Source: a virus
Lineage: Duplodnaviria; Heunggongvirae; Uroviricota; Caudoviricetes
Length of the DNA: 24,197 bases
Virus record (IMG/VR): IMGVR_UViG_2619619133_000006
Span: 1 to 24,197 of that record
Reading direction: 5' to 3' (one strand)
The notes below the pieces were generated by a model that did not search any database, was not told where the DNA came from, and worked only from the letters and a program-made list of their open reading frames with translations. The position numbers were made by a program, and so were the translations under genes. Shown here piece after piece: positions 6,884 to 24,197 of the stretch; position 1 is the first letter of the stretch; each line of letters begins with the position of its first letter.

Positions 6884-6901
6884 CCTCAATATCCTTCCAT
6901 C

Positions 6902-6923: not shown

Positions 6924-6936
6924 ATTACCTATCAAT

Positions 6937-7919: not shown

Positions 7920-8007
7920 CAAAACAGAGAAGAGCATCACCGGACGACGGGCTCATAAACCAATCCATCCGGGCGGCTGCCACCGCAGGTGTTCTTCTCT
8001 GTTTTGT
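7919..8007. repeat. Long inverted repeat (15-bp perfect arms, 55-nt spacer) just upstream of the yfdP-like gene
   Basis: acaaaacagagaaga (7919-7933) is the exact reverse complement of tcttctctgttttgt (7993-8007). Confidence 0.6.
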
Positions 8008-8055
8008 GGAGAAACTAATCGGCCTTGCAGGGTCGATATGATGAGGAGCAGCAAA

Positions 8056-8418: not shown

Positions 8419-8483
8419 TATCGTTCTTAATTAACTGATTATTTATCTCATCACTGAATATCTTTATATAGTGAGGACTTATT

Positions 8484-9308: not shown

Positions 9309-9320
9309 TTTCATTACTGC

Positions 9321-9342
9321 AAATGCCCCTGCGGGGGCATTT
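9321..9342 (+). other. Perfect 9-bp stem-loop between the yfdQ-like and yfdR-like genes
   Basis: aaatgcccc-tgcg-ggggcattt; no clear U-tract, so possibly an attenuator or mRNA-stability element rather than a terminator. Confidence 0.35.
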
Positions 9343-9435
9343 ATGGAAACGTAATTTACTCAATAATCGCCGGATGGTGAGGGATTCTTTTTACCAGAAT
9401 TCAGCGCGGTGCAGCGCATATACGTGGAGAACAAA

Positions 9436-9972
9436 ATGTCATTTATTAAAACTTTTTCCGGGAAGCATTTTTATTATGACAGGATAAATAAAGACGACAT
9501 CGATATTAACGATATCGCGGTTTCCCTTTCAAATATCTGTCGCTTTGCCGGTCATCTTTCGCACTTCTACAGCGTCGCCCAACATGCGGTTCTTTGCAGC
9601 CAGCTGGTGCCGCAGGAATTTGCTTTTGAAGCGTTAATGCATGATGCAACAGAAGCGTATTGCCAGGACATTCCCGCACCACTGAAACGCCTTCTTCCTG
9701 ACTATAAACAAATGGAAGAAAAAATAGACGCCGTAATCCGTGAGAAATACGGGTTACCCCCGGTTATGAGTACGCCCGTGAAATATGCCGATCTCATCAT
9801 GCTGGCAACCGAACGCCGCGATCTCGGGCTTGATGATGGCTCTTTCTGGCCTGTACTGGAAGGTATCCCGGCAACAGAGATGTTCAACGTGATTCCACTG
9901 GCACCGGGCCATGCCTACGGGATGTTTATGGAACGCTTTAACGAGTTATCGGAGTTACGCAAATGCGCATGA
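9436..9972 (+). CDS. yfdR: YfdR-like HD-domain phosphohydrolase (5'-deoxynucleotidase family)
   Basis: 178-aa product from the internal ATG with GGAGAA RBS; His/Asp-containing motifs (CRFAGHLSHFYSVAQH, LMHDATEAYCQDIP) are consistent with an HD-domain fold. Confidence 0.55.
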   Translation: MSFIKTFSGKHFYYDRINKDDIDINDIAVSLSNICRFAGHLSHFYSVAQHAVLCSQLVPQEFAFEALMHDATEAYCQDIPAPLKRLLPDYKQMEEKIDAVIREKYGLPPVMSTPVKYADLIMLATERRDLGLDDGSFWPVLEGIPATEMFNVIPLAPGHAYGMFMERFNELSELRKCA

Positions 9973-10325
9973 ATGTTTTCGAAATGGAAGGGTTTCTTCG
10001 TGGGAGATGTGTACCGCGAGATCTGAAAGTAAATGAAACAGATGCTGAATACCTGGTGCGTAAATTCGATGCGCTTGAAGCTAAATGTGCAGCACAGGAA
10101 AACAAAGTAATACCAGTGTCAACTGAACTGCCACCAGCAAATGAAAGTGTTTTGTTATTCGATGCTAACGGAGAAGGCTGGCTAATTGGCTGGCGTTCTC
10201 TCTGGTACACCTGGGGACAAAAAGAAACCGGAGAATGGCAGTGGACATTTCAGGTCGGGGACCTTGAAAACGTCAATATCACTCACTGGGCAGTAATGCC
10301 AAAAGCACCGGAGGCTGGAGCATAA
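9963..10325 (+). CDS. yfdS: YfdS-like protein
   Basis: 120-aa ORF overlapping the upstream stop; size and order as in yfdQRST. Confidence 0.45.
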   Translation: MRMNVFEMEGFLRGRCVPRDLKVNETDAEYLVRKFDALEAKCAAQENKVIPVSTELPPANESVLLFDANGEGWLIGWRSLWYTWGQKETGEWQWTFQVGDLENVNITHWAVMPKAPEAGA

Positions 10326-10630
10326 TGACCACTTTTACCGACAAAGAACTGATTAAAGAAATTAAAGAGCGTATCAGCAGCCTTGACGTGCGAGACGATA
10401 TTGAGCGCCGTGCTTATGAAATCGCACTCCTATCTCTGGAAGTAGAACCAGATGAACGCGAAGCTTATGAATTATTCATGGAAAAGCGTTTCGGTGACTT
10501 AGTAGATCGTCGGAGAGCAAAAAACGGCGATAACGAATACATGGCATGGGATATGACTCTCGGTTGGATCGTCTGGCAGCAACGAGCTGGTATCCATTTT
10601 TCAACAATGTCACAGCAAGAGGTGAAATAA
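10325..10630 (+). CDS. yfdT: YfdT-like protein
   Basis: 101-aa ORF; start overlaps the upstream stop (TAATG). Confidence 0.45.
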   Translation: MTTFTDKELIKEIKERISSLDVRDDIERRAYEIALLSLEVEPDEREAYELFMEKRFGDLVDRRRAKNGDNEYMAWDMTLGWIVWQQRAGIHFSTMSQQEVK

Positions 10631-10980
10631 TGGAGCCATACAGCCTCACACTCGATGAGGCCTGTCATTTTCTCAAGATATCCAGACCGACTGCCATTAA
10701 CTGGATACGCACAGGGCGTCTTCAGGCAACACGCAAAGATCCCACTAAGAATAAATCTCCTTACCTCACAACACGACAAGCCTGCATTGCGGCGCTTCAG
10801 TCTCCGCTGCATACTGTCCAGGTGAGCGCGGGTGATGGCATAACAGAGGAAAGAAAATGTCACTCTTCCGCAGAGGTGAAATATGGTACGCCAGTTTCAC
10901 ATTGCCGAACGGTAAAAGATTTAAACAGTCTCTTGGAACAAAGGACAAAAGGCAGGCGACAGAACTCCATGACAAGCTAA
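10630..10980 (+). CDS. Excisionase-like (Xis/AlpA-type HTH) protein; C-terminal extension overlaps int
   Basis: Starts at the ATG overlapping the upstream stop; N-terminus [33 protein letters not shown] is Xis-like and sits immediately upstream of int. The last ~40 codons overlap int and look non-protein-like. Confidence 0.4.
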
Positions 10981-12020
10981 AGGCTGAAGCATGGCGGGGC
11001 AGCAAACTTGGTGAAATACCTGATATAACGTTCGAGGAAGCGTGTGTCAGGTGGCTTGAAGAGAAAGCACATAAAAAATCACTGGACGATGACAAAAGCC
11101 GGATCGGATTCTGGCTTCAACATTTCGCAGGAATGCAACTAAGAGACATTACTGAATCAAAAATTTATTCAGCAATGCAGAAAATGACGAACCGGCGTCA
11201 TGAGGAAAACTGGAAACTCAGGGCAGAAGCATGCAGAAAAAAAGGGAAACCTGTTCCAGAATACACGCCAAAACCAGCGTCCGTTGCAACGAAGGCTACG
11301 CATCTTTCATTTATAAAGGCCCTACTAAGAGCCGCAGAGCGTGAATGGAAAATGCTGGATAAGGCACCAATTATTAAAGTGCCTCAACCAAAGAATAAAC
11401 GGATCCGCTGGCTGGAGCCCCATGAAGCACAAAGGCTGATTGATGAATGTCCGGAGCCATTAAAGTCTGTTGTTGAATTTGCACTGGCAACAGGCTTAAG
11501 ACGCTCGAACATCATCAACCTTGAATGGCAACAAATAGATATGCAGCGCCGGGTGGCATGGATAAACCCAGAAGAGAGTAAATCAAACCGCGCAATCGGC
11601 GTTGCGCTGAATGATACTGCATGTCGCGTTTTGAAAAAACAAATCGGGAATCATCACCGTTGGGTATTTGTGTACAAGGAAAGCTGTACCAAACCAGACG
11701 GAACGAAAGCGCCAACAGTAAGGAAGATGCGGTATGACGCAAACACAGCCTGGAAAGCGGCGCTGAGACGGGCTGGTATTGATGATTTCAGATTTCACGA
11801 CTTGAGACACACCTGGGCAAGTTGGCTGGTTCAAGCCGGAGTCCCGTTGTCAGTGTTACAGGAAATGGGAGGCTGGGAGTCTATCGAAATGGTTCGTCGA
11901 TATGCTCACCTTGCACCTAATCACCTTACCGAACACGCACGGCAAATAGACTCGATCCTGAACCCATCGGTCCCAAATTTGTCCCAGTCAAAAAATAAGG
12001 AAGGTACTAATGATGTGTAA
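10857..12020 (+). CDS. int: Tyrosine integrase, P22 Int / DLP12 IntD type
   Basis: 387-aa ORF; N-terminus [34 protein letters not shown] recalled as the P22/DLP12 integrase family; catalytic motifs [11 protein letters not shown] and MVRRYAHL; 10 bp from the tRNA-Thr core. Confidence 0.85.
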
Positions 12021-12029
12021 CTTATTGAT

Positions 12030-12048
12030 TTAAATGGTGCCGATAATA
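12030..12048 (-). other. att core: 19-bp copy of the 3' end of tRNA-Thr (thrW), not a complete tRNA gene
   Basis: tggtgccgataataggagt is the reverse complement of ACTCCTATTATCGGCACCA, the thrW 3' end as I recall it. Flanking sequence diverges from the tRNA, so only the core is present. Confidence 0.45.
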
Positions 12049-12196
12049 GGAGTAAAACACTCGATTAATCTCGTGTTAATGCCATCACCTACGACCATTA
12101 CTAATTGATTGAATCTTATAGAAAAAATCATCATTTTCTATGCATTACAATCAATTTTCACATTACAAACGCTCCGACACTTTAGCCGGGGAGTTT

Positions 12197-13474
12197 ATGA
12201 GATACAAGCCCAATCAATACATAATCTGTGATTCTTACGGTAACTACTATTTGAGGATCACGTTGCCTGTGTATATGCAGCCCTTTTTTGAAGGAAAAAG
12301 GACGTTTGTCAGGAGTCTGCATACAAGTAACCTTCGTGTTGCACGTAGAAAGCGTGATCAGATTGCAGATGAATACCATTGTTTACGGGAGAGTGTCGCC
12401 CCTGTAAACAGCACAATAGAGAACACGCTGGAACTGTTACGCAGTAAGGCTAAATACGCCAAAACAGCTACCAGAATGCAAGATACAGCGTCTTCGTGTC
12501 CGTCATTGCTTAAAATTCTTGAAATCTACCTGACAATTAACAGCACGAAGAAGAAGCCAGCCACTTTAGCTAAGGCAAGAAAAGCGGTAGAGATGTTTCT
12601 CTCCTACCGTAAAAAGCCTGATATTGCATTGCAAGATGTGAGCCGCACCACTGTTACAGGCTGGATTGAACACATGCAAAAAACCCTTTCACAACAATCA
12701 ATTGCAAATTATATCAGCCCAATGGCCCAGCTATGGGAGTTAGCTTCATCACGTTACCACGATGCGCCAGAAAGGGCGCTCTCCCCCTGGCGAGGGCATA
12801 GGCTTGATGTGGCACAAAGTAGAGAGAGCTACGAGGCATTTTCTAACAAAGAGCTATTGCAGGTGTTGCAAGTATTTTCCGGTAATTCAGCAGAAAACAA
12901 AGAAATGATGGCTTTGTGTCTTATCGGTGCTTATACAGGTATGCGGATCAATGAGATAGCAAGTCTCACAATAGACGATGTGAAAGAGATCGAAGGTGTG
13001 CTGTGTTTTGAAATCACACAGGGAAAAACGAAAGCTGCGGCACGTGTTGTGCCTGTACATAGCCTTATCACTCCGTTGGTGTTGTCGCTGCGTGAAAAGC
13101 CTCATAATGGCTTTTTGTTCTATCACGCCAGCATTACAGAGCGTGCTGATGGTAAACGTTCCACGTGGCACACGCAGAGATTTACAAGAGCTAAACGAAA
13201 GGCTTTAGGGGAAAAGGGAACAGAAAGGAAGGTGTTTCATTCTCTGAGACACGGAGTAGCACAGCTTCTTGATCGAAATCAAATTCCAGAAGACAGGATC
13301 GCCCTTCTCCTGGGCCATACACGCGGTAATACAGAGACATTCCGCACATATAGCAAGAATGCAGCTTCTCCAGTAGAGCTTAAAAACTATATTGAGCTTC
13401 TACGCTACCCTGAAATAGAGAAAGGCTTATCAATCAATAAAAAATCAAATTTAAGGCGTAAAACAACGCCATAG
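12197..13474 (+). CDS. Tyrosine integrase (second, unrelated family)
   Basis: Likely start at the internal ATG with GGGGAG RBS (track ORF begins at 12140). Catalytic motifs HSLRHGVAQLL and ETFRTYSKN; N-terminus NGNYYLRITLP typical of integrase arm domains. Confidence 0.75.
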   Translation: MRYKPNQYIICDSYGNYYLRITLPVYMQPFFEGKRTFVRSLHTSNLRVARRKRDQIADEYHCLRESVAPVNSTIENTLELLRSKAKYAKTATRMQDTASSCPSLLKILEIYLTINSTKKKPATLAKARKAVEMFLSYRKKPDIALQDVSRTTVTGWIEHMQKTLSQQSIANYISPMAQLWELASSRYHDAPERALSPWRGHRLDVAQSRESYEAFSNKELLQVLQVFSGNSAENKEMMALCLIGAYTGMRINEIASLTIDDVKEIEGVLCFEITQGKTKAAARVVPVHSLITPLVLSLREKPHNGFLFYHASITERADGKRSTWHTQRFTRAKRKALGEKGTERKVFHSLRHGVAQLLDRNQIPEDRIALLLGHTRGNTETFRTYSKNAASPVELKNYIELLRYPEIEKGLSINKKSNLRRKTTP

Positions 13475-13481
13475 ACGCAAT

Positions 13482-13520
13482 AAAGAGGCTTCAACATAGA
13501 TTGGTAGCCTCTTTTATAAT
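13482..13520 (+). terminator. Hairpin with a weak T-tract after the second integrase
   Basis: aagaggct / agcctctt stem with 15-nt loop, followed by TTTATAATT. Confidence 0.35.
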
Positions 13521-13555
13521 TACATCGTTACAGAGCGTTTTAGAGGCATTTACGG

Positions 13556-14269
13556 CTATTCCTGTTTAAAGGCAGGAGTAATAGTGTCTTCACCTTCACT
13601 ACTAGATTTTTCAGTGTTAACACGTTTTTTCATATTAGCCCCGATGTTCTTAGATGGCTGTGTTTTGATAGCTACAGTGTTTACAGTGCCATAAGACACT
13701 AATCTTATTTGCTCAAAGCTAAGATCAAATACCAGAGATTCGCTTGCCTCTTCTGTGTATTCGATGCCTGTTAAAACAACGTTCTCAAAAGTTTTATTTT
13801 CTGTAACAAGAAGAAAAGGCTGTCTACTGTCCATAATCTGATTCAGGTAGTCGATAGCTAATGATCTTCTGTTCCCGTTCACCCCTGCACTCTTTAACAA
13901 GCCAGGATCGCTTTTAATCGGTGTTTCAGTGATCCTTCCCTTAAGAGAAAACTTATTGTTTTTAATTTGAACGTGATCAGACACAGTAGCACCATTCTCT
14001 ACGGGGTAGCTTGTGACATCTGCCGAACGTCTCACGTTCACATCATCTACACTGTCAAAGGCCAGTGCCATATAATTTTCATAAACGTCATTGCCAGAAG
14101 ATGCCAAGCCACTTGTAACAATAGCAAATCCATTCTCTCCTTTTGTTTTATTAGCTTTGCTATTTTCGTTTTTTGTAGAGTTTATATCTTGTTCTGCTTT
14201 GTAAACAGCCTGAACGTGTTGTTCTGGAGTATTTGCTGCACGTATGGTTAAAATTCCCGCCGTTGCCAT
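13556..14269 (-). CDS. Hypothetical protein (virion-protein-like composition)
   Basis: 237-aa ORF with AAGGAAA RBS; rich in N/S/T/G; last gene of the minus-strand cluster, facing the integrase. Confidence 0.4.
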   Translation of the reverse strand: MATAGILTIRAANTPEQHVQAVYKAEQDINSTKNENSKANKTKGENGFAIVTSGLASSGNDVYENYMALAFDSVDDVNVRRSADVTSYPVENGATVSDHVQIKNNKFSLKGRITETPIKSDPGLLKSAGVNGNRRSLAIDYLNQIMDSRQPFLLVTENKTFENVVLTGIEYTEEASESLVFDLSFEQIRLVSYGTVNTVAIKTQPSKNIGANMKKRVNTEKSSSEGEDTITPAFKQE

Positions 14270-14290
14270 AATAATAATTTCCTTGTAATG

Positions 14291-16132
14291 TTATGGCGGA
14301 AATTCCCCGCCGTTAGATTGTCCTGATAAGCTGGTTAATGTTAATGATTTCAAGAAGCTATCCCGACTTGCTCTCGCTGTAAAATCCACATAATCGCTTA
14401 ATCTTGATGTGTCACTATTAATAGTAAGCGGAACCTCTGTTACCACTTCAAATGTAGGATTCAGATTAAACACAGGAGATAAATTATAAGCCGGAGTTGT
14501 CATTGCAAGATTATTTAAAGCACCCTGTTTGAGATTGGTTATCGGTGCTTCATTGACTGACATTTTTACATCTGACACAGAAGATTTATCATCGAAAAGC
14601 AATCCCTTAATCGTGTTAAAGAGAGAATGACTATTATCAGGTGTAGTTGTTGCAGTGCCAGCGCCTTTATATTGATCAGGAACGAGATTAGAAAGATTCT
14701 GTTTCATTCCGTCATTGCTTAATGGCGGTGCATCACCTAAATTTTTCTGAATAGCCTCTGTCTTATCATCATTACGATTAAACCAGTTTACAATCTTCAT
14801 AATAGCTTCAAAGAGACTTCCTACAGCTTCTCCCAGCTTCGTAAAATACGGAGTGAGATTAGAAAGGTTTTTCATAAACTCTTCCGTTACTTTTGGATCG
14901 AGAGATTTCATAAAGCCATCAACAAAGGCGATCCCTTGTGAGTCAGAAAGCCCACTAAGTGCATTATTCAGTTCACGGAATTTAATAACGCTTTCCTGTT
15001 GTGCCTGTGTTACCCAGCGCCCTGATTCTCGTTGTTCTCGTGCTGATTGTTCCACTTCTTTAGCGGAGCGTGTCCAGTATTTAGAGGTGAGCATCAAATC
15101 ATCAGCCAGATCTTCCAGACGACTACCGATCTGCGCATCTGAATAGCCCTTTTTCACCATTCCATTGACAGCTTTACTAACCAGACCAGCCGGATTATCA
15201 GCAAAGTCTTTTAAATCTTTCTTAGTTAAGAAACCTTCGTTAAGTAAAGTATTAATACCTGAATCGCCGCCCTTCCATTCGCCTCGGCCTGTTTTCTTAT
15301 CAACTACATATTCAGCTTCATCATAAGATTTGGTTGCACGTTCACGCACATCTTTCATCTGATCCAGATACTTGCGACGACCTTGATCCCCCATCATTGA
15401 ATCAACGCCGTTTTTATACGCCCATTGTTCAATATTGTTCATCTGGTTAACATCTACACCGCCCAGCTTCGCACGGCTATACAATTCACCCAGCGTTTCA
15501 GCGTTAGCGAAGCTGTTAGCCATAAATTCAGAGGTTTTACTAACAGCCATCACGCCAGCAGCAGCCGTAGCGCCTCCAAATAACAGAGCGCCCATAGTGG
15601 CGGAATTCCCTGATCCTCCCTTAACGGGGGCTAATTGTGCTTTTCTGTTGCCATTAATTTTACGTTGTTGCTGTTGTAAGCGTTTCATCTGGCTATTCAT
15701 ACGTGCAAGCGAGATAGCGCCTTGTTCGTATTGTTTGGCTATCTCACGCGCCTGTGCAATAGCTTTGTATTGTTCCGCTACAGAGAGGCGGTGCATTGCA
15801 CTGATAGAGCTTGAAACATCAAGGAGCTTTAACTCTGCTTTCTCTTTACGTGCTGCTATTTGTGCCTGTTGCCTTGCCTGTGCTCTTGCTGCGGCAGCTT
15901 GTGCTTTTTGATTCTGTTTTTCGTTTTTCGCTTTTTGCTGGGTAATCTTGTCTACTTCACTTTGTGCTTTCTTATAGCCTTTAGTGACACTATCAAACCT
16001 TAATTTAGCTGGCTTGATATTTTCTGTGAATTCTTTTAGGCTTGTAATAGAGTCTTTCGCTTTTTTCAAGCTGTCTTTATCTACACTAAATGTTACTGTG
16101 TTCTTAATTTTAGAAGTGTTAATTTCTAACAT
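14291..16132 (-). CDS. Large hypothetical protein with N-terminal coiled-coil/low-complexity region (structural or ejection-protein-like)
   Basis: 613-aa ORF with GGGGA RBS; N-terminal KAKNEKQNQKAQAAAARAQARQQAQIAARKEKAELK; no catalytic motif recognised. Confidence 0.45.
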   Translation of the reverse strand: MLEINTSKIKNTVTFSVDKDSLKKAKDSITSLKEFTENIKPAKLRFDSVTKGYKKAQSEVDKITQQKAKNEKQNQKAQAAAARAQARQQAQIAARKEKAELKLLDVSSSISAMHRLSVAEQYKAIAQAREIAKQYEQGAISLARMNSQMKRLQQQQRKINGNRKAQLAPVKGGSGNSATMGALLFGGATAAAGVMAVSKTSEFMANSFANAETLGELYSRAKLGGVDVNQMNNIEQWAYKNGVDSMMGDQGRRKYLDQMKDVRERATKSYDEAEYVVDKKTGRGEWKGGDSGINTLLNEGFLTKKDLKDFADNPAGLVSKAVNGMVKKGYSDAQIGSRLEDLADDLMLTSKYWTRSAKEVEQSAREQRESGRWVTQAQQESVIKFRELNNALSGLSDSQGIAFVDGFMKSLDPKVTEEFMKNLSNLTPYFTKLGEAVGSLFEAIMKIVNWFNRNDDKTEAIQKNLGDAPPLSNDGMKQNLSNLVPDQYKGAGTATTTPDNSHSLFNTIKGLLFDDKSSVSDVKMSVNEAPITNLKQGALNNLAMTTPAYNLSPVFNLNPTFEVVTEVPLTINSDTSRLSDYVDFTARASRDSFLKSLTLTSLSGQSNGGEFPP

Positions 16133-16147
16133 TTAAAATCCCCCTTA

Positions 16148-16351
16148 TTAATCATTTTTACAACCTTCTTTACTTAAGAAATGGTGTAGAGCCTGATCAA
16201 TACTCTCGTTTAATCTGAACATACGGGCTTTTACTCCTTCATATGGAACATCTAAGAGAGAACATAGATATTTCAGATTTAACAAGCCTCTAGAATCATT
16301 AGCATCTAAATGTACGTGGACACCATTTTTTGATTTCAGAATCACTTCCAT
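16148..16351 (-). CDS. Small hypothetical protein
   Basis: 67-aa ORF with GAGAGGTGA RBS immediately after the A19 terminator. Confidence 0.35.
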   Translation of the reverse strand: MEVILKSKNGVHVHLDANDSRGLLNLKYLCSLLDVPYEGVKARMFRLNESIDQALHHFLSKEGCKND

Positions 16352-16373
16352 ATTTTAATCACCTCTCAAAATT

Positions 16374-16420
16374 AAAAAAAAAAAAAAAAAAAGGCGAAGC
16401 GTGAATACACGCCACGCCTC
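16374..16420 (-). terminator. Strong intrinsic terminator after the capsid-like gene, with a 19-nt homopolymeric T tract
   Basis: On the minus strand: hairpin ggcgtggcgtg-tatt-cacgcttcgcc (about 10 bp, one mismatch) followed by T19 (A19 on the plus strand, 16374-16392). Confidence 0.6.
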
Positions 16421-16436
16421 TATTACACGTTAAATA

Positions 16437-17465
16437 TTATTTAACAGTGATTTGAACGGAGAAGCCTACACCGTGGTTTACAACCATCTGGCTATTCTCT
16501 GTAACAACGTTAACAGCATCACCACGAGAAGATTCATAGCTATAGCTGTAAACCTCAGTAGGAGCGGCATTAATCAGTTCAAAGGTGCTGGAAGCAGCCC
16601 CGTAGATGTTCTGATATACGTTAGAGCCTTTAGCGAATTTAGGCACAGCTACAGCGTCTGCGGTCATATGTGCAAGGTGTAGCGGATCTACCAGTTTAAC
16701 AACATCAATGTTAGTTCCTGGAATAGTGAACGCTGTCACCCCTGGCAGCAGGTCACGACGCTGATACACAACGTTCCCTTCTTCCAGTGGGCTTACATAC
16801 TGGAATGCGTTTGCCATACCCGCAGAGAATCGAATTGCAGAGAAGGCTTCCGGCTTACAGAAAACAACAATACGCTCTACAGCAGCCGCCTGGCTTTGTG
16901 CTTTCTCGATAATGTCAGTAGCAATCTGATCAAATTCTTTAAAAATCTTCGTGGTGTCAGTGCTGGAAGCGTTCACAGTGGCTTTCATAGCTGATACGTT
17001 AAACAGCTTGCCCCACTCGATAAGAACATCATCAGTTTTAGGCGTGTAAGTTTTGCCAGAGAACAAAGAAGCCGCCAACACGCTCTCTTTAGTGCGCTGA
17101 TACGCTACGTGGTGTTTAGCAACATAGTCAGCATAGATATCAGTGAGTGTTTCCTGGAAATCAGTGCCAGGTTTACGTTTGCCTTGAACATCAGAAGGAC
17201 GGATCACATCTTCACGAAGAAAATACGGGATTTCAATCAGCCATTCTTTACCTTGTTCTCGCTTAGTAACGTTGTGTTCAGAAGAGAAACGAGAGGTTTC
17301 TTTGTTAAAGAGAGATTCGTTGCTTTCGACAAGCTGGGAAACAGCTACTTTATGAGAACTAACGCCCACCGGATCAGTGAAGTCGAGGGTAGAGAGCAGA
17401 TAGTTTCTAGTGCTATGAGCCTGGAAAAGCGGAGCTAAATCAACGTAATCATTACCTAGAATCAT
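16437..17465 (-). CDS. Putative major capsid protein (local similarity to T7 gp10-type capsid protein)
   Basis: 342-aa ORF. VERIVVFCKPEAFSAIRFSAGMANAFQYVSPLEEGNVVYQRRDLLPGVTAFTIPGT parallels T7 gp10A ADRVFYCDPDSYSAILAALMPNAANYAALIDPEKGSIRNVMGFEVVEVPHLT as recalled. Size, strong terminator after it and operon position fit a highly expressed structural gene. Confidence 0.45.
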   Translation of the reverse strand: MILGNDYVDLAPLFQAHSTRNYLLSTLDFTDPVGVSSHKVAVSQLVESNESLFNKETSRFSSEHNVTKREQGKEWLIEIPYFLREDVIRPSDVQGKRKPGTDFQETLTDIYADYVAKHHVAYQRTKESVLAASLFSGKTYTPKTDDVLIEWGKLFNVSAMKATVNASSTDTTKIFKEFDQIATDIIEKAQSQAAAVERIVVFCKPEAFSAIRFSAGMANAFQYVSPLEEGNVVYQRRDLLPGVTAFTIPGTNIDVVKLVDPLHLAHMTADAVAVPKFAKGSNVYQNIYGAASSTFELINAAPTEVYSYSYESSRGDAVNVVTENSQMVVNHGVGFSVQITVK

Positions 17466-17483
17466 TTATTATTATTCCTTTTA

Positions 17484-17846
17484 TTAAGAAGTGAAAACAG
17501 AGTGGAACCCTTCAAGCTGGAAGCCTTTTTTAATTAATGCTGTTTTTGCTGCTTCACTTACAGCATTCAGCGCATCAGCTTTGATGCAGACAAGCCCAGC
17601 ATTGCTACGTAGCACATCTACAGGCTTGTTGTCTCCAGCCGTTAAAAACTCACTCATAACAACATAGATATCATCTCCTGATTCATATTTAGCGCCAGTG
17701 CTTGTGATCAAGTCGCCGCACTCAACATCAGCAGGAAGAGAAGCAAAAACCTTGCTTTCTACAGAGGCAAACGGATCAGTACAATAACTTACAATATCTG
17801 TGAAAGTCTTTCGAACTGGAAATAGAGTGTCTAAATCAATAATCAT
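17484..17846 (-). CDS. Hypothetical protein upstream of the capsid-like gene
   Basis: 120-aa ORF overlapping the upstream stop (ATGA). Confidence 0.4.
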   Translation of the reverse strand: MIIDLDTLFPVRKTFTDIVSYCTDPFASVESKVFASLPADVECGDLITSTGAKYESGDDIYVVMSEFLTAGDNKPVDVLRSNAGLVCIKADALNAVSEAAKTALIKKGFQLEGFHSVFTS

Positions 17847-18055
17847 TTAGTAATCTCCTTAGCTTTTAATTTGATTAATTCATTAAGGGAAGGTGTAGAC
17901 GGAGAAGAAGGAGAAAAATATTTTTCAACACATCTTTCTACTTCCTCGACAGAACACCCAGCGTATTTAGCTACCATTTCGGTAATTTGTGGATTAATTT
18001 TCAGCATTTCATCTTTATACTTGATGATTTGCTCTTTATCATTTAAGAACAACAT
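17843..18055 (-). CDS. Small hypothetical protein
   Basis: 70-aa ORF, first gene after the 18.06-18.39 kb intergenic region. Confidence 0.35.
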   Translation of the reverse strand: MLFLNDKEQIIKYKDEMLKINPQITEMVAKYAGCSVEEVERCVEKYFSPSSPSTPSLNELIKLKAKEITK

Positions 18056-18329
18056 TTATATAAACCTTGTTACCTTGTTTAAAGTAAGAAATACAACTTT
18101 TAAGTTGCATAACGGGCAAAATAAAAGGCAGCATTTAAAGCCGCCTTTGTAATTACCCTATGTTATGCACACTCCAAGATGTATGCATAACAAAGGAAAA
18201 AAGAGGTAATAATGACACAGTATTTACTTAAGGAGGAGAAGCGGGGAGCGGAGATTTTACTCCCCTTTAACGACAAGAAGAATTTTTAATATCGAACCAA
18301 TAAAGGAAAAATAATCACCCCATATAATT

Positions 18330-18358
18330 ATATTAACATACAATAGATGGAATGTCAA
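18330..18358 (-). promoter_or_regulatory. Candidate sigma70 promoter for the capsid-containing operon
   Basis: Minus strand TTGACA (18358-18353), 17-bp spacer, TAATAT (18335-18330). Downstream palindromes CAACTT-TT-AAGTTG (18095-18108) and TTATGCA-N14-TGCATAA (18163-18190) could be operators. Confidence 0.35.
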
Positions 18359-18387
18359 GATATTTTACAACTTTTTTGTTGCTTTTT

Positions 18388-18726
18388 TTATTCTTCTGTG
18401 ATAGTAGCGCCTAAGCGTTGAGCTAGTTCAACAAGTCCGTCTCCTACATAGCGAACGTCCGATTCAAGACCTTCTATCCAGTTTGATAGCTCCCATAGCT
18501 GAGCCGCTGTCAGATATGCGTTCTCACGCTTACAGAGCATCTCTACACGCTTAGAGAGGTGCTCAAAGGCATTCACAGCTAAATCCCAGTGTTTAAACGC
18601 CTCATTTAGTGCCGCTGGCGTGTTTTCTTTGTATGCTTCAAGTTCAGCGCGGTTTAAAGGCAGGAGGTAATCATCCTCATAATAATTAATTAGTGAATAA
18701 ATTGTGTCATACGTGTTTTTGTTCAT
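18388..18726 (-). CDS. Hypothetical protein
   Basis: Likely start at the ATG at 18726 (GGAGA RBS, 2 nt after the upstream stop) rather than the track start at 18753; about 112 aa. Confidence 0.4.
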   Translation of the reverse strand: MNKNTYDTIYSLINYYEDDYLLPLNRAELEAYKENTPAALNEAFKHWDLAVNAFEHLSKRVEMLCKRENAYLTAAQLWELSNWIEGLESDVRYVGDGLVELAQRLGATITEE

Positions 18727-18727
18727 A

Positions 18728-19138
18728 TTAAAAGTCTCCATAGTGATCAACATTATCTAGAATATGGAATTCTGGGACTAAATTATTTAGGCCATTTGTG
18801 GCGAGATAACCAACGTAGTGGTTATAGTCTTCAAATCCTAAAATCTGGTATTTGCGGAGTTCGTCAGAACTAACAATATACTCTTTTCTTTTTCTAGGTT
18901 TCCAGAATACACCAGGTGTTGAAGATAAGATTTCTTGTAATGCGTTAAATTCATCTCCACAAGGCACAGAGGGAGAATGTTCTATGATCTCTGTTTTCCA
19001 TTCGCCAGGGGCGCTATTTTGCTTGGTGAGCGTAACTAGCTCTTTAAAGTCTTTACGTCTTAGAATAGATTTAGGTTTACTTAGAAGAGAAGCTGAATCA
19101 CCGATTTTCTTAACAACGTTGTTTTTTCTTTTTGCCAT
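18728..19138 (-). CDS. Hypothetical basic protein
   Basis: 136-aa ORF; lysine/arginine-rich N-terminus MAKRKNNVVKK. Confidence 0.4.
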   Translation of the reverse strand: MAKRKNNVVKKIGDSASLLSKPKSILRRKDFKELVTLTKQNSAPGEWKTEIIEHSPSVPCGDEFNALQEILSSTPGVFWKPRKRKEYIVSSDELRKYQILGFEDYNHYVGYLATNGLNNLVPEFHILDNVDHYGDF

Positions 19139-19270
19139 TATTTACTTTTCCTTTTCTTTTAAAGGAAAACACCCCGAAGTATGTTTCTAACGTGAGAAAG
19201 AACAATAACCAATACATAGCTACTATCATAATAATGTTTTCCTTTTATATTTTAATTACATAGAGAGATT

Positions 19271-19546
19271 TTAGAGAGTGGAATAGATGAATTCTACTTT
19301 ATCTAGTCTTTTGAGATTGAATGTAGAGAAAGATAATTCTTTAATCTCTATAACACCGAAATTTGATAGCTGTCTAAGCCAGAATTTTAAACCATCTTCA
19401 GAGCAAGCTGCTCGATGTAACACATCGCTATATTTTAGCGGTGTTGGCTTTCCTTTATAGAGGTAAGCAAGTGTTTCGTAGATGCGTTTTCCTGTGTCAT
19501 TACACTGAATTCTGTCTACTTGATTTTTTACTAAATATTGAATCAT
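19271..19546 (-). CDS. Small hypothetical protein
   Basis: 91-aa ORF in the operon. Confidence 0.35.
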   Translation of the reverse strand: MIQYLVKNQVDRIQCNDTGKRIYETLAYLYKGKPTPLKYSDVLHRAACSEDGLKFWLRQLSNFGVIEIKELSFSTFNLKRLDKVEFIYSTL

Positions 19547-19557
19547 AACCCTCCTTA

Positions 19558-20247
19558 TTAAAATGGAATATCAAAGTCTTCATATACTTTGGGATGTTTC
19601 TTAGCAAAATATGCCTCAATACCATTTGGTAGCTTTAACCTGTGCTTATAGGCTAACGATGTTGCAAATTCTATAAAGGATGCCCCTCCTGTTCTGGTAT
19701 TCTTCTGCGTGATAATAAGAGAGGCAAAATTCTCTAACACATCCTCCTCATTATCATTAGCTACCTTTTCATTTGATGAAACAGGTGTTTCTTCCATCTC
19801 CCAGGGTAAAGGCGTATCCCAATCATCAAGAACATCAAAAGAAGGCTGTTTATGGCCTTTAGGTTGTTCCTGTGCTTCTTCTGCCTCAGAAAGATCAGAG
19901 AGTGATGATTCTCCTGGGGGAGTAATATGTGCATCTGTGAGAGGGAGAGCATTGTAAATCAAAGATGAAATATACGGATCAGGATGTGGGGATGTTTCTA
20001 ATAATCCCATCTCTTTAAGATCGTTTATCTTACGTTTAATTGTTGACGCTGAAGACTTAAAAATCTTAGCTAATGTTTCGTGACTTTCATAACAATTAAG
20101 GTTGTTTTCCTGATAACTAAGGAATCGAAAATAAAGCACAATATGTAATAGTTCTAAATCTTTTCCTTGAGGGAATTTATCAGAATAAATCTTTGATACA
20201 TTATCAAACGTGTCATAGTGTTTTGTAAAAGTTAGTTGATTAATCAT
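19558..20247 (-). CDS. Putative DNA-binding / replication-initiator-like protein (N-terminal winged HTH, acidic linker)
   Basis: 229-aa ORF; LELLHIVLYFRFLSYQENNLNCYESHETLAKIFKSSASTIKRKINDLKEMGLLE resembles the HTH of phage/plasmid initiators; lies near the iteron region. Confidence 0.35.
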   Translation of the reverse strand: MINQLTFTKHYDTFDNVSKIYSDKFPQGKDLELLHIVLYFRFLSYQENNLNCYESHETLAKIFKSSASTIKRKINDLKEMGLLETSPHPDPYISSLIYNALPLTDAHITPPGESSLSDLSEAEEAQEQPKGHKQPSFDVLDDWDTPLPWEMEETPVSSNEKVANDNEEDVLENFASLIITQKNTRTGGASFIEFATSLAYKHRLKLPNGIEAYFAKKHPKVYEDFDIPF

Positions 20248-20298
20248 TAAAAATCTCCTTATAAATCACGCTTAATGCGCTACTAAAGTGAATGAGGA

Positions 20299-20466
20299 TC
20301 ACTTACCCTTTTTTTGTTTGATGTTCTCTGCTGCTTCAGTAATGATTTCTAACATCAAATCACTGACCATAATTTGCCTTTTCTTGGCTTCAGCAAATAA
20401 AACCTTGAAGATTTCAGGGTCAACGTGTAGGTAAGTGCGCGGAATTGGTTTCTTAGTTTCGCTCAT
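20299..20466 (-). CDS. Small protein (55 aa), possible DNA-binding regulator
   Basis: Below the ORF-track size cutoff. ATG at 20466-20464 with AGGAGA RBS; MSETKKPIPRTYLHVDPEIFKVLFAEAKKRQIMVSDLMLEIITEAAENIKQKKGK; a beta-strand-then-helix pattern is compatible with ribbon-helix-helix, which is uncertain. Confidence 0.3.
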   Translation of the reverse strand: MSETKKPIPRTYLHVDPEIFKVLFAEAKKRQIMVSDLMLEIITEAAENIKQKKGK

Positions 20467-20485
20467 AGTTTTCTCCTTCTATTCT

Positions 20486-20674
20486 TTACTCTGTTTCAGA
20501 TTCTTTTTCATTTTTTCTTAATTCATCAATAATCTTGAGTGCTTCATTGAAGCAAGCTGCTCGCTCTGGATAACCTCGACTCCTTGCCATATTACGATTC
20601 ATTACTATTTGATGGCGTGTAAGCTCACCTTTTTTAAATGCCTGGATGACGTGCTCAGATGTAAACCATTTCAT
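20486..20674 (-). CDS. Small hypothetical protein (first gene of the minus-strand operon)
   Basis: 62-aa ORF directly downstream of the candidate promoter at about 20.8 kb. Confidence 0.3.
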   Translation of the reverse strand: MKWFTSEHVIQAFKKGELTRHQIVMNRNMARSRGYPERAACFNEALKIIDELRKNEKESETE

Positions 20675-20784
20675 AAAAAACTCCTTATTCAGTTAAAAGA
20701 AAAAACACCTTGCAAGCCTGACGGCTTCAAAGTGCATTGATTTTGATTATTTAGAGAAGAATGTTTTCTGTCCCTCTAATACCT

Positions 20785-20813
20785 ATTATTACATATAAAG
20801 AAACATTTGTCAA
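20785..20813 (-). promoter_or_regulatory. Candidate sigma70 promoter facing the 62-aa gene
   Basis: Minus strand TTGACA (20813-20808), 17-bp spacer, AATAAT (20790-20785). Confidence 0.3.
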
Positions 20814-20905
20814 TACCCTTTCCGAAAAAAATCGATCTTTTTCATGCACTTACATTTTTTCTTAGCTATTCGTGCTCTTCTGTGTAGTGCTATTCTTCCT
20901 TATTG

Positions 20906-20935
20906 TCTAAAACGCTCTAAAACGCTCTAAAACGC
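20906..20935. repeat. Three exact tandem copies of 10-bp TCTAAAACGC
   Basis: Copies at 20906-20915, 20916-20925, 20926-20935. Confidence 0.7.
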
Positions 20936-21349
20936 GTTATAACGAGATTTTGATAAAAGCAATACATTCCCTTATGTAATGGCTGTTTAGCTCGCCAGAG
21001 GCTTATTTAAGGGGCTTATTTTGTATTTGTTAGGTATATGAAAAGGTAATGGTAGATATAAGATAGAGAGTCACTTTATAAAACGCTATGTAAAGCCCTG
21101 TAGTGAGCTTATATGTGTAGGCAATGCGTTTCCATTCCCTACCCTGCTTAATGCTGTTAGAGAAGCATTTAGACCCCTTATTTTTAATTAATTAAAGTAT
21201 CCTCTATACATTCCTGTTATGAAACACCTCTGAATCCTTCATAAAACACATTATGACGCAAAGAACACTTTTCTAAGGTGATTCCCTTCCTGAATGCTGT
21301 TTCTTGCGTCAGAGAGCTACAGAGAGCTTATAAAGCTATTATTAATAAT

Positions 21350-21410
21350 AAAGTAGATAAAGTAAGATAAGTAAGTAAGATAACTAAGATAGATAAGATT
21401 AATAAGATCA
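21350..21410. repeat. AT-rich GATAA / TAAGATAA repeat cluster
   Basis: aagtagataaagtaagataagtaagtaagataactaagatagataagattaataagatcag; multiple GATAA units. Confidence 0.5.
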
Positions 21411-21450
21411 GAATTCTCTTTCGGTGTCGCCTCTGGCTTTTCCACCGAAA

Positions 21451-21617
21451 ACAATTACACGACTACAGAATGTAGGAAGTGGAATTGTATTGAGGCTTAG
21501 TGAAATTACACGAGGAAAGCAGAGTGTAATTGAGCTTTAGCCGCTCTCTCTTCGAGTAATTACACAACTACAGAGAATAACGAGAGTTATTAAGTGTAGG
21601 AAGTGGAATTAAGAGGT
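21451..21617. repeat. Dispersed direct repeats (AATTACAC-N-ACTACAGA and 16-bp TGTAGGAAGTGGAATT, two copies each)
   Basis: TGTAGGAAGTGGAATT at 21471-21486 and 21595-21610 (exact); AATTACAC(G/A)ACTACAGA at about 21453 and 21559; the second copy carries a palindromic insert aataacgagagttatt. Confidence 0.6.
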
Positions 21618-21649
21618 AGAGAGAGTTACACATAAGCAATCAGTATGAT

Positions 21650-21835
21650 TGGTTAGGTGATTACTCTTCTGCGCACAGCGCAATAGTATTTCTTCGTGGG
21701 CGTTATCGCCAACGAAGTTACACGAAGAAAGTAACGCTTTGCTTTCGGTGTGAGCGGAACGGGCCAGCCACGAAGCCCGAAAGGTAGCGGAGTAAGGCTG
21801 CTTGCCAGGGAGTGAAGCTAACGCCGGAAGGCAAA
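21650..21835. ncRNA. GC-rich structured island inside the AT-rich origin-like region; candidate regulatory RNA
   Basis: Hairpins cttcgtgggcg-ttat-cgccaacgaag (21683-21708) and ctttcgg...ccgaaag (21739-21781). The only long ORF here (21609-21842, minus) translates to non-protein-like sequence. Confidence 0.25.
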
Positions 21836-21840
21836 AGATC

Positions 21841-21852
21841 ATATATATATAT
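21841..21852. repeat. (AT)6 dinucleotide repeat; candidate DNA-unwinding element
   Basis: atatatatatat immediately upstream of the 22-bp iterons. Confidence 0.4.
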
Positions 21853-21924
21853 AGATATAAAGAATATTATTATTATGATCTAATTAATAATCTAATATAG
21901 TTTTATTAATAGTCTTATTGTAGT

Positions 21925-22026
21925 TCACAGTGACCTACCCCCTAGCTCACTATGACCTACCCCCTAGCTCACTATGACCTACCCCCTAGCTCATAGTGAA
22001 CTACCCCCTAGGTCACAGTGACCTAT
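21925..22026. repeat. Iteron array A: 4.5 tandem copies of 22-bp TCACTATGACCTACCCCCTAGC
   Basis: Copies at 21925, 21947, 21969, 21991 (variant) and partial at 22013; directly abutting, no spacers. Confidence 0.8.
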
Positions 22027-22082
22027 ATAGTATAAAGAATATTATTTATATTATTTAATTATAGTATTTAATTATAGTATTG

Positions 22083-22184
22083 GTGGAACTCATTTCCTAG
22101 GTAGGTAGGAACTCATTTCCTAAGTAGGTAGGAAACCACTTCCTAGGTTACTTCCTAAATAGATCGGAAATCATTTCCTAGGTG
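22083..22184. repeat. Iteron array B: 4-5 copies of about 23-bp GGAACTCATTTCCTAGGTAG-like unit
   Basis: Copies at about 22085, 22108, 22131, 22166; each contains internal GGAA...TTCC dyad symmetry. Confidence 0.75.
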
Positions 22185-22198
22185 TTATTTATACTTAT

Positions 22199-22262
22199 CG
22201 GGTATCAGTTTTGATAGGGGTATCAGACTTGATAGGGGTAACAGAATTTTGTTAGGGTAAAA
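22199..22262. repeat. Iteron array C: 3-4 copies of about 18-bp TTGATAGGGGTATCAGA
   Basis: Copies at 22211-22227 and 22229-22245, plus partial copies on both sides. Confidence 0.7.
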
Positions 22263-22304
22263 ATCTCTTTAAAAGTTAAGATTAACAGAATTCTGTGGGG
22301 GTGG

Positions 22305-22341
22305 TTCACTATGACCTACCCCTAGTTCACTGTGAGCTACC
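22305..22341. repeat. Two further array-A-type iterons about 280 bp from the main array
   Basis: ttcactatgacctacccctag (22305-22325) and ttcactgtgagctacc (22326-22341). Confidence 0.65.
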
Positions 22342-22470
22342 GTTACATTCAATCATCTTCCGATGTGTAATATCGTTACATTCAATAATTAGTCTATGTA
22401 ACATATCGTTACTACCAACTTTCTTACAGAGAGCATTTCAGATAGCTGAATGTAACCTCTCGTTACATCC
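22340..22470. repeat. Repeat family CGTTACAT(T)C (4 direct copies plus 1 inverted)
   Basis: Copies at about 22340, 22372, 22406 and 22460; inverted copy tgaatgtaacc at 22447. Confidence 0.6.
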
Positions 22471-22936
22471 ATTTGTCACATAGCACTCTGTGTAATGTCT
22501 TTCTATGTGTGTGCCATAATCCCCCTATATTCCCTGTGTAAATCATAGAATATCCCTAACTTATTCCTGTGTAATTCCCTACTAAAAAATCCAATGAAAA
22601 ATGGCTTCAAAGTGCAATGTTAGCTTTCTTCACTTTTACATCACTTTCGCAAAGCCTTGTGTAATGCGGTTTACAGAGCACCATCAGAAATTGTTGGCTA
22701 AAAATTGTTCTGCTTGTTTCTTAATGAGTTTTCTTGTTTGTGCAAATTTTAAAATTTATTTTGTTTTTACAGCCTTATTTCGTGTAATGCGTGGCATAGC
22801 AAGCCCTTTTCTTGTGTTGTCAAGACATTTGGCAACGTTCAAACATCTGTTTAGAAATGCCAAATTATTGATCTAACAAATAAACCTGTATAAACAGAAC
22901 ACCATTTAATCTATTCCCCTGTGTATCCATTAGGCA

Positions 22937-23045
22937 TACCAAATGAATACAGCTAAATCGTGTAATATTCCGTACCCATAAGGCTTGAAACAGACCAAAT
23001 GAATACGATATACTCATTTGCATTGAAGTAGTGCCAAATCGATAC
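22937..23045. promoter_or_regulatory. Candidate recombinase-binding (res-like) site upstream of the serine recombinase gene
   Basis: Direct repeats ACCAAATGAATAC (22937-22949, 22997-23009) and related GCCAAATCGATAC (about 23031), 15-120 bp upstream of the recombinase start. Confidence 0.3.
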
Positions 23046-23059
23046 ATTAAGAGGATTTT

Positions 23060-23599
23060 ATGAGCAATATCGGTTATAAGCGTGTGAGCACTGTAGATCA
23101 GAACACTGATCGCCAGCTTGCAGGAGTAACGCTTGATAAAGTCTTTGAAGATAAGCTGTCAGGTAAAGACACTAACCGTCCAGGCTTACAAGCGTGTTTA
23201 TCCTATCTGAGAGAAGGCGACACCTTACACGTGCACTCTCTCGATCGTTTAGGGCGTAACACCTTAGACATTCTTGCCTTAGTGGAACAACTTAATAATC
23301 GTGGTGTAATTGTTCGCTTTCACAAAGAAGGGATCATTGCAGACATTACAAGCGCGATGGGAAAGATGATGCTTACGATGTTGTCGGCAGTTGCAACGTG
23401 TGAACGTGAACTGATGTTAGAGCGTAAACGAGAAGCGCAAGCCGTCAATCCTACAAAGCGTGGTAAAGGTAAAGCAGTGGATAGGGAAGGTATAAAGAAA
23501 GCCCTTTCTGATGGCCTGTCAGTGCGTAAAACCGCCGAGAGCTTTAATGTTGCTCCTTCAACGGTACAGCGAATTAAGAAGGAAGAAGAGGAGGCGTAA
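23060..23599 (+). CDS. Small serine recombinase (resolvase/invertase family)
   Basis: 179-aa ORF; catalytic N-terminus MSNIGYKRVSTVDQNTDRQ with Ser in the RVST motif; aligns in pattern with Hin/Gin/Tn3 resolvase; C-terminal HTH LSVRKTAESFNVAPSTVQRI. Confidence 0.85.
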   Translation: MSNIGYKRVSTVDQNTDRQLAGVTLDKVFEDKLSGKDTNRPGLQACLSYLREGDTLHVHSLDRLGRNTLDILALVEQLNNRGVIVRFHKEGIIADITSAMGKMMLTMLSAVATCERELMLERKREAQAVNPTKRGKGKAVDREGIKKALSDGLSVRKTAESFNVAPSTVQRIKKEEEEA

Positions 23600-23710
23600 T
23601 GCCTCCTTGATATTTGGGGATTCTGGATTTTCCAGATCGGGGGGCGCTGAAAATCGCGTTAAGCACCTCTCGCAATCTAGCCATAAGGGAAGGAATATAG
23701 GTATTTAGAT

Positions 23711-23750
23711 GTATTTATAGCTATTTATGGCTATTTATGGCTATTTATTT
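23711..23750. repeat. Four to five tandem 10-bp repeats (G/C)TATTTAT(G/A)G
   Basis: gtatttatag, ctatttatgg, ctatttatgg, ctatttattt in tandem; 10-bp phasing. Confidence 0.65.
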
Positions 23751-24038
23751 TTTATTTACCTTTATTTAAAAATAACCTTATAAATCAATAAGATACAGAA
23801 CTATCTGTTTATATTTTAACCAATTAAATCAAGTTTAATACCCTTAAATAACCTGAAAATAGCCTTAAATACCCCAATAATTAATTTTAAGGTTTTCCGT
23901 GTTCTCTTCTGCATTATGAAAATGCAAAATAAGGCACAAAACAAGCGCACAGACGCATTAAACACACATCACCTATACATCCCTATACCAAGCAATGAAA
24001 ACAGCGTTAGAATGCGTCCTGTTGGGTTCTGGAGATTT

Positions 24039-24197
24039 TCAGAAATCCTCTCTAAGCCATTTCAACTCACTAAGGAGTTTTCTTTCTTCGTTCTCTCGCT
24101 GTTTACGCTCTAGCCAGGCTTTTCCTTCTGGCGTAGACAGGAACTTACGAGCGTGAATCTTGCGGTTATTACGTTTTATAGCTGCAATGTTTTTCAT
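24039..24197 (-). CDS. Small basic hypothetical protein (52 aa), start codon at the window edge
   Basis: Minus-strand ATG at 24197-24195; MKNIAAIKRNNRKIHARKFLSTPEGKAWLERKQRENEERKLLSELKWLREDF; below the ORF-track cutoff. The start may lie further upstream outside the window. Confidence 0.25.
   Translation of the reverse strand: MKNIAAIKRNNRKIHARKFLSTPEGKAWLERKQRENEERKLLSELKWLREDF

Follow-up and report, generated by a model that had tools for sequence, protein, structure and literature searches.

What is a GC-rich, strongly folding patch doing within the AT-rich, non-coding part of a phage-related element, and does it act as an RNA? The question is raised by positions 21650-21835 of a 24,197-nt stretch of DNA from a Caudoviricetes virus record (IMGVR_UViG_2619619133_000006), referred to here as the window. 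The original prediction described the patch as a GC-rich structured island in an AT-rich origin region and as a candidate copy-control or regulatory RNA. Its composition is as described: the patch has a GC content of 0.53, against 0.345 across the remaining non-coding sequence (20675-23059), with 0.60 in its 3' part (21740-21835). It is the GC maximum of this 2.4-kb non-coding stretch, at a level matched by just 0.13% of 186-nt segments island-wide. The predicted hairpins also withstood in-silico folding: as RNA, the + strand of 21640-21845 reaches -73.4 kcal/mol (z -3.5), a value equalled by none of 200 shuffles, and the - strand reaches -58 kcal/mol (z -2.2). Moreover, the surroundings are as AT-rich and repetitive as had been stated, the patch being flanked by an AT tract (21841-21919), five 22-bp repeats (21920-22029) and more repeat families.

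Two statements held only in part. The absence of a plausible reading frame is not literally correct, as the - strand contains a 77-aa ORF starting with ATG (21609-21842), but the region is non-coding: this ORF was rejected as a gene because frameshifting single-base indel polymorphisms occur at no fewer than three sites inside it among near-identical homologues (GGAACG[A]GG, AGCC[A]ACG and CCC[G]AAAGG). The limits of the patch were drawn too narrowly, since the structured domain extends leftward by another ~230 nt, to 21417. What was flagged corresponds to the GC-rich 3' third (P1-P6, 21664-21838) of a chain of hairpins on the + strand that spans ~420 nt (21417-21838) and comprises H-a to H-e plus P1-P6.

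The folding of the whole domain is more pronounced than that of the patch. As RNA, 21400-21840 gives -160 kcal/mol on the + strand (z -7.9) and -130 kcal/mol on the - strand (z -6.2); with DNA parameters the z values are -8.1 and -6.9, respectively. The equivalent domains of two divergent islands (L116 and L118) have z values of -4.1 and -3.6. The + strand has a stability advantage of 14-34 kcal/mol over the - strand in three divergent types, with 6.5-11% G.U pairs. Furthermore, among 36 distinct close relatives 5.4% of the paired sites vary, compared with 14.4% of the unpaired ones (2.7-fold, Fisher p=0.003).

The 5' half (21419-21659, + strand), which has homologous blocks in other island types, is folded into five consecutive hairpins: H-a (21419-21450), H-b (21451-21488), H-c (21494-21542), H-d (21543-21626) and H-e (21629-21659). 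The fold of 21400-21665 (z -7.2 on the + strand and -4.8 on the - strand) is stronger than that of the GC-rich patch itself, and the composition of this half is G-rich and C-poor (25% G, 15% C, GC skew +0.24). The 3' part, on the same strand, begins with the P1 hairpin TGCGC-ACA-GCGCA (21670-21682), almost invariant and present in nearly all homologues. P3 (21689-21731) consists of an outer stem TTTCTTCGTG/CACGAAGAAA, an inner hairpin GGCG-TTAT-CGCC and the internal loop AACGAAGTTA. P4 (CGCTT...GAGCG, 21735-21756) is the weakest helix, with 91% of cells paired in the model-based alignment described below, and the P5 core (GGC-CAGCC ... GGCTG-CTT-GCC, 21762-21806) includes an internal hairpin and a GAAA loop. 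The terminal hairpin GCC-GGAA-GGC (21823-21832) takes the place of the P6 hairpin GGCG-N5-CGCC of other types, and the conserved GGCAAAAGATC comes after it. Two long-range closing stems, P0 (TTCC/GGAA) and the outer stem of P6 (TTGCC/GGCAA), were discarded as comparison gave them no consistent support; a loop-loop (kissing) pairing between P3 and P6 was likewise inconsistent across types.

Homologues of the element were located by exact-pattern scans in genomes of four genera (Escherichia, Enterobacter, Citrobacter and Serratia) and in ~70 metagenome contigs; the window itself holds one copy. Exact-pattern scans return only the pattern, so that part of the invariance of the core is an ascertainment artefact; islands were therefore gathered via their capsid protein and then subjected to profile searches, which revealed two additional core types. 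The upstream hairpins P2 and P3 are exchanged among types for unrelated yet complementary sequences, the architecture being kept. Thus, P2 occurs as TTCGCC/GGCGAA, TACGCC/GGCGTA, TTTGCC/GGCAAA or TATGCC/GGCATA, and the outer stem of P3, always with inner hairpins, as the pair given above, TCGTGC/GCACGA, GTGCAA/TTGCAC or GTGCC/GGCAC. Six divergent variable halves each fold better than their shuffles (z -1.8 to -3.5); taken by itself, the invariant type I core does not (z about -0.1).

The type I core, near-invariant across the four genera, has the P5 helix GGC-CAGCC...GGCTG-CTT-GCC, which is GGGG-TGTCC...GGACA-TTT-CCCC in type II and GGC-TGACC...GGTCA-CTT-GCC in type III. All three have the same helices, a 3-nt YTT bulge, an internal GCC...GGC hairpin and a GNAGCC motif in common. 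Within type I, the variation of P5 falls mostly in unpaired positions; the few exceptions include L015 (C->T giving G.U) and L046. MAFFT alone misaligned the P4 and P5 arms, and a covariance model of P4-P6 was used instead; with 30 distinct sequences in the resulting alignment, pairing extends to 96.5% of its cells. Changes on both sides affect 11 of the 23 pairs, compared with 3.3 +/- 1.4 in shuffles, none of 500 reaching 11, and with at most two pairs in slid controls; in the main P5 helix all seven pairs have changed on both sides. These counts come from an alignment fitted to the model, and the P5 signal derives from three alleles, that is, from few independent events. One-sided stem changes between divergent types, assessed by eye, mostly lead to G.U pairs (GTGCAG/TTGCAC, GGTTG/CAGCC and GCT-GGAA-GGC are examples); among close relatives G.U is not favoured over A.C (3 vs 5). 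Comparison with homologues, one of the checks proposed for the patch, thus came out in favour of structural conservation, and as far as sequences can tell the secondary structure of P2, P3 and P5 is maintained by compensatory changes.

The position of the domain gives a first indication of its role. To the left lies the gene for a 229-aa Rep-like initiator (19558-20247, - strand; HTH_36, DUF6945, O-like/DnaD-like PHROGs), transcribed away from the domain; the rep operon has a strong leftward promoter (20785-20813, - strand, TTGACA-17-TG-AATAAT), with equivalents in L016 and L002. To the right, the AT-rich tract with GATC sites (21841-21919), which in homologues always follows the domain directly, is taken to be the DNA-unwinding element of an origin. 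It is followed by the five 22-bp iterons (21920-22029), the set matching the Rep allele of the window, with two inverted copies at 22301-22343, and by two further families (22094-22250), one of four 23-bp iterons (22094-22183) and the other of three 18-bp iterons (from 22200).

The relation between Rep allele and iteron family was assessed across about 50 loci. Islands that match at 95-99% in their structural genes span 28 to 100% in Rep identity. Where Rep is at least 91% identical, the 22-bp repeats are present in multiple copies (4-14 regex counts) at nearly all loci; at loci with other Rep alleles the counts do not exceed 2-4 and can be put down to the shared inverted copies. Rep proteins of 57-67% identity go with the 23-bp GGAAnnCAnTTCC repeats, and those of ~52% identity with the 18-bp GGGTATCAG repeats. 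Since Rep allele and iteron family co-vary, this is, on comparative evidence, a genuine iteron origin, with tandem direct repeats that lie beside an AT-rich region and are specific for the neighbouring initiator, as in iteron-type theta origins. The placement of the structured island within a replication-origin region was thus correct. No DnaA box (TTATNCACA with up to one mismatch) occurs in 20574-23957. It may be added that the window combines three iteron families (22-, 23- and 18-bp) with a single Rep allele, and that relatives with other Rep alleles have the 23-bp or the 18-bp family (both at the loci with Rep 57-67% identical) without the 22-bp tandem array; this mix suggests cassette exchange that leaves "foreign" iterons behind.

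Pairwise comparison of islands resolves the region into two variable cassettes, Rep and the iterons, separated by a constant block (20450-21900) that holds the rep-operon promoter, the hairpin domain and the AT-rich tract; the element is therefore independent of initiator specificity. The domain is found with Rep alleles of 28-100% identity, and its orientation is fixed, 5' to 3' toward the AT tract and iterons, with the divergent rep on the opposite side. It demonstrably exists, is conserved, and keeps its position and orientation beside the unwinding element. Moreover, among the island protein families from -7 kb to +5 kb none co-varies with the core allele, near-identical alleles being common to types I-III, and so in this comparison the element is independent not only of the Rep allele but also of every other island protein allele. 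Its partner would therefore be the host, a helper phage or nucleic acid itself. The domain is the initiator-independent constant arm of an iteron-type origin in mosaic islands of Enterobacteriaceae.

This arrangement bears directly on the proposal of an antisense copy-control RNA, a countertranscript of the replicon, which would be in keeping with a structured non-coding region inside an origin. A distance of 1.2-1.6 kb separates the element from the Rep start codon, and even the rep-operon promoter is ~600 nt away from it; because that promoter (20813-20785) points leftward, away from the domain, and Rep starts at 20247, there is no overlap, and antisense pairing with the rep mRNA or its leader is impossible. 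Furthermore, an identical element occurs in islands whose Rep alleles differ by up to 70%, and this constancy contradicts a Rep-specific antisense controller. In addition, consensus scans of the + strand of three island types, which weak or non-sigma-70 promoters could escape, returned neither a sigma-70 promoter nor an intrinsic terminator of its own, and the aligned upstream blocks contain no conserved -10/-35. This part of the prediction must be given up, an antisense role being extremely improbable.

Two other observations concern the borders of the domain. Homologues of a type other than that of the window (type B, e.g. L016 10323-10341) carry after the element a hairpin, TTTGCG-ACAAG-CGCAAA, which the window type does not have; on the - strand it reads like a terminator (hairpin plus ATCTTTT) and could keep transcripts that run leftward out of the iterons from entering the domain. 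Upstream of the domain, all island types have the box ATTCCCTACCCTG (21136-21148 in the window, with a degenerate second copy at 21283-21295), and in the window type ~230 bp of extra AT-rich sequence, including GATAAG repeats (21352-21400), lies between the box and the domain.

The near-invariant sequence of the type I core might also be that of a double-stranded DNA site, such as a pac or cos site, a recombination site or a protein-binding array, and a serine recombinase gene with a conserved inverted repeat does lie 1 kb to the right. Recognition of double-stranded DNA would leave unexplained, however, that helices are kept by compensatory changes with unrelated sequences, and the core allele is tracked by no island protein allele. 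Nor is there any similarity to phage records, as would be expected of a mimic of helper cos or pac. A double-stranded site is accordingly rated as quite improbable. The inverted repeat, ATTTGGCA...TGCCAAAT, belongs to a 46-bp block (22827-22872) conserved in most island types and situated ~190 bp upstream of the serine recombinase gene (23060-23599), in whose promoter region TGCCAAAT occurs again (23033-23040); the block is a candidate res site or operator.

The nature of the element that carries this origin was also reconsidered. Instead of the plasmid that had been supposed, the window holds E. coli chromosome with an integrated island that resembles a phage satellite; of 834 matches in E. 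coli, 832 lie on chromosomes. Among 5426 complete genomes of this species, 717 have a match to the 2-kb region, nearly always on the chromosome, and 438 (~8%) have one to the 461-nt core region, with no annotation beneath it. In a plasmid collection of 72,556 records (megablast, and blastn with E<=1) the one real match, chance matches aside, was a 4.9-Mb record, i.e. a chromosome, and in a phage collection of 50,697 records the same searches gave chance matches only. The absence of plasmid and phage matches argues against a borrowed plasmid ssi or oriT or a mimic of helper cos/pac.

In strain 2013C-4538 the element is within an island of ~12 kb adjoining tRNA-Thr and proA. The island encodes an integrase, Dit-like and tape-measure-like proteins (the latter of 613 aa), a lambda-E-type major capsid protein, its capsid gene being of HK97 type, several small ORFs and the 229-aa Rep-like protein, after which come the non-coding region and the serine recombinase; no terminase, portal or protease gene was detected in the island (window 13556-20674). 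It looks like a family of phage satellites, not placed among PICI, cfPICI or P4-like elements. In the window, its tandem neighbour is a lambdoid prophage, a possible helper, represented by the end that carries the immunity genes and the integrase. This prophage end (window 1-12020) comprises a CI-like S24 repressor (6191-6883), CII (5289-5840), an HTH_36 O-like protein (4327-4944), KilA-N, DUF968/HNH and an integrase (10857-12020). In other strains pao genes flank the island instead of the prophage, and the thrW region of O157 Sakai has other elements and no such island. The gene families of the islands each exist in several alleles, shuffled between islands, which amounts to extreme mosaicism.

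A satellite-like island with capsid, tape-measure-like and Dit-like genes, without terminase or portal and in tandem with a lambdoid prophage, could encode a trans-acting or helper-directed ncRNA that interferes with or senses the helper phage and is merely located in the constant block. Such a role would suit a conserved structure of this size, which tracks no protein allele of the island and whose type I core is near-invariant across four genera. Against it, the domain adjoins the AT tract in a strictly kept orientation although the islands are otherwise heavily reshuffled, which speaks for a role in cis, and nothing points to a complementary or other target. The promoter and terminator scans of three island types were empty for this RNA as well, and four related islands (L115, L120, L124 and L125) do without the element. 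A trans-acting RNA is thus considered unlikely, although less so than a double-stranded site.

The element is, then, best read as a cis-acting origin module that would be active as a folded nucleic acid of the + strand. This reading of a single-stranded module is suggested by its fixed position, its orientation toward the AT tract, its independence of the Rep allele, the strand bias of its folding and the conservation of helices, bulges and loops; the domain probably helps to start DNA copying. The module may be RNA or single-stranded DNA. Of the two, the RNA version is favoured, albeit tentatively, and we infer that the domain acts as RNA and that it does so in initiation. According to this model, the domain would be transcribed rightwards as an untranslated, tightly folded RNA that runs into the adjoining AT-rich unwinding element; once Rep has bound its iterons, this RNA would serve as a pre-primer or activator in the opening or priming of the origin.

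Several features point to such an RNA: the size of about 420 nt, with nine or more helices and conserved bulges and internal loops; the stability advantage of the + strand, its G.U content and the stem changes giving G.U across divergent types; and the combination of a conserved origin-proximal part with variable distal hairpins. The G-rich, C-poor 5' half is also in agreement, a sequence of this kind being suited to a Rho-resistant, R-loop-prone untranslated transcript. However, neither a sigma-70 promoter nor an intrinsic terminator was detected on the + strand of the three island types, and the folds of the - strand and with DNA parameters are highly significant too (z -6.2 to -8.1). Close relatives show no preference for G.U over A.C, the invariant core alone does not exceed its shuffles (z about -0.1) and the covariation of P5 comes from only three alleles. 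There are, besides, many triloop-capped stems, and the type I core has CGNAG and CGAAAG motifs, as at single-stranded DNA priming sites (PMC13037366). A pre-primer or activator RNA of the + strand is accordingly put forward as a possibility that still falls short of being probable.

These last features would also suit a single-stranded DNA initiation signal, whose + strand hairpins, once Rep has melted the AT tract and the region is unwound, would resist SSB and recruit host primase or the PriA primosome, so as to prime the leftward fork or load its helicase, much as G4-type or phiX174-type ssi signals do beside plasmid origins. A site for the host machinery would fit the contact with the unwinding element, the fixed orientation and the independence of the Rep allele; no transcription signals would be needed, in line with the empty scans, and with DNA parameters the + strand does fold (z -8.1). 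Strand-specific hairpins predicted with DNA parameters beside the AT tract of an origin are also what a G4-type ssi presents. Triloop-capped GC stems are abundant, and the CGAAG/CGTAG and CGAAAG motifs of the type I core recur in the G4 and phiX174 intergenic sequences. Mini-hairpins have been reported at the complementary-strand origins of G4, St-1 and alpha3 and at ssiA of RSF1010 (PMC13037366, a review).

On the other hand, no sequence similarity to G4, phiX174, St-1, alpha3, plasmid G-sites or any other plasmid or phage record was found (blastn E<=1, phage and plasmid records). Only core type I has, in its P5 arm, the 5'-CTG-3' that a conserved primase start just 3' of the key hairpin would require; types II and III have neither this triplet nor conserved mini-hairpin motifs, and even within type I the GAAA loop is commonly AAA. 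Known ssi signals measure about 60-150 nt, and a 420-nt domain with nine or more helices is far larger; its distal 5' hairpins, moreover, would not be single-stranded at initiation. GAGCGG and TAGCGG in the element recall the AAGCGG of the phiX174-type PriA site, which we take to be a resemblance of motif only. The DNA version is thus a possible but somewhat doubtful alternative to the RNA version, which is retained as the working model.

Comparison with known systems places the element among origin-associated structural elements that work as single strands. Rfam 15 assigned no family to any part of the window at the gathering threshold, and a permissive search of 20600-24197 gave chance snoRNA-like matches with E>1, none of them within the patch or 21417-21838. 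A search for tRNA and tmRNA was negative, and the full text of the literature gave no match for the core sequence, for AAGCGG together with primosome sites or for DUF6945. The element carries no annotation, and its sequence resembles that of no known origin RNA or ssi.

Transcript-primed or transcript-activated origins are exemplified by ColE1 RNA II, oriF and oriG of T4 and the "activator RNA" of R6K. With ColE1 RNA II, a promoter-driven structured transcript of ~500 nt that ends at the origin, the domain shares the design of an untranslated, multi-hairpin sequence of several hundred nucleotides that points to the start of DNA synthesis, as well as an origin-proximal part that is the most conserved and distal hairpins that vary. 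It differs in that neither sequence nor Rfam similarity, nor a promoter or an antisense partner, was found and its transcription is a prediction; moreover, ColE1 RNA II acts independently of a plasmid-encoded initiator, whereas the island origin has Rep and co-varying iterons. The ssi signals (G4-type, phiX174-type, ssiA/B of RSF1010) are comparable in being strand-specific, GC-rich hairpins beside an AT-rich or iteron origin and independent of the initiator allele, with the CGNAG and CGAAAG motifs shared by core type I, but the element is three to five times larger and unrelated in sequence, and types II and III share neither the CTG start nor the mini-hairpins.

The intergenic region of M13/f1, a non-coding chain of imperfect hairpins of ~500 nt, strand-asymmetric and serving replication, is similar in both its hairpin chain and its asymmetry; however, M13/f1 are single-stranded DNA phages with a rolling-circle initiator, whereas the island combines iterons and a theta-type Rep with a capsid gene of HK97 type. 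Finally, in the PICI/SaPI and lambda-type iteron origins, too, an initiator gene is followed by iterons and an AT-rich melting region, within an integrated island related to phages (PMC6092414). The description of the PICI origin given there has sets of iterons on the two sides of an AT region and mentions no structured domain (PMC6092414). A further difference is that neither an alpA nor a pri-rep module was detected in the present island, whose rep operon points away from the origin.

The interest of the element lies in part in its host, since E. coli is the most heavily annotated bacterium and yet ~8% of its complete genomes contain this domain unannotated and without an RNA family. As an RNA, it would enlarge the enterobacterial set of large structured ncRNAs and imply that a folded transcript can be required by an iteron/Rep origin. 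The chance that it represents a new class of large ncRNA is fair; that such a class, of ~420-450 nt and encoded in Enterobacteriaceae by a family of capsid-gene-carrying satellite-like islands not described before, licenses or primes a Rep/iteron origin, as a hybrid of ColE1-like RNA priming and initiation by Rep and iterons, or couples replication of the island to the helper phage, is conceivable but on the doubtful side. If it is a single-stranded DNA signal, it would be a new and unusually elaborate priming or helicase-loading site. In either case, it marks the initiator-independent half of the origin in widespread, mosaic, satellite-like islands, for the finding of which the R1 covariance model offers a handle.

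Some related islands depart from this organization. In the four without the domain, whose capsid protein is 53-64% identical, the place is taken by a different non-coding region (L115 4347-6089, L120 4202-5859, L124 4786-6157 and L125 4381-6142), with a short hairpin that has the GCGAAGC mini-hairpin motif (GTGTCAGTGAGCGAAGCGAGCATGACA). Another E. coli island (L003) has the structured element beside thiM and carries as cargo an 871-aa TIR-domain protein (11092-13707), likely a defence gene; in this island IS1 occupies the place where the Rep gene would be expected.
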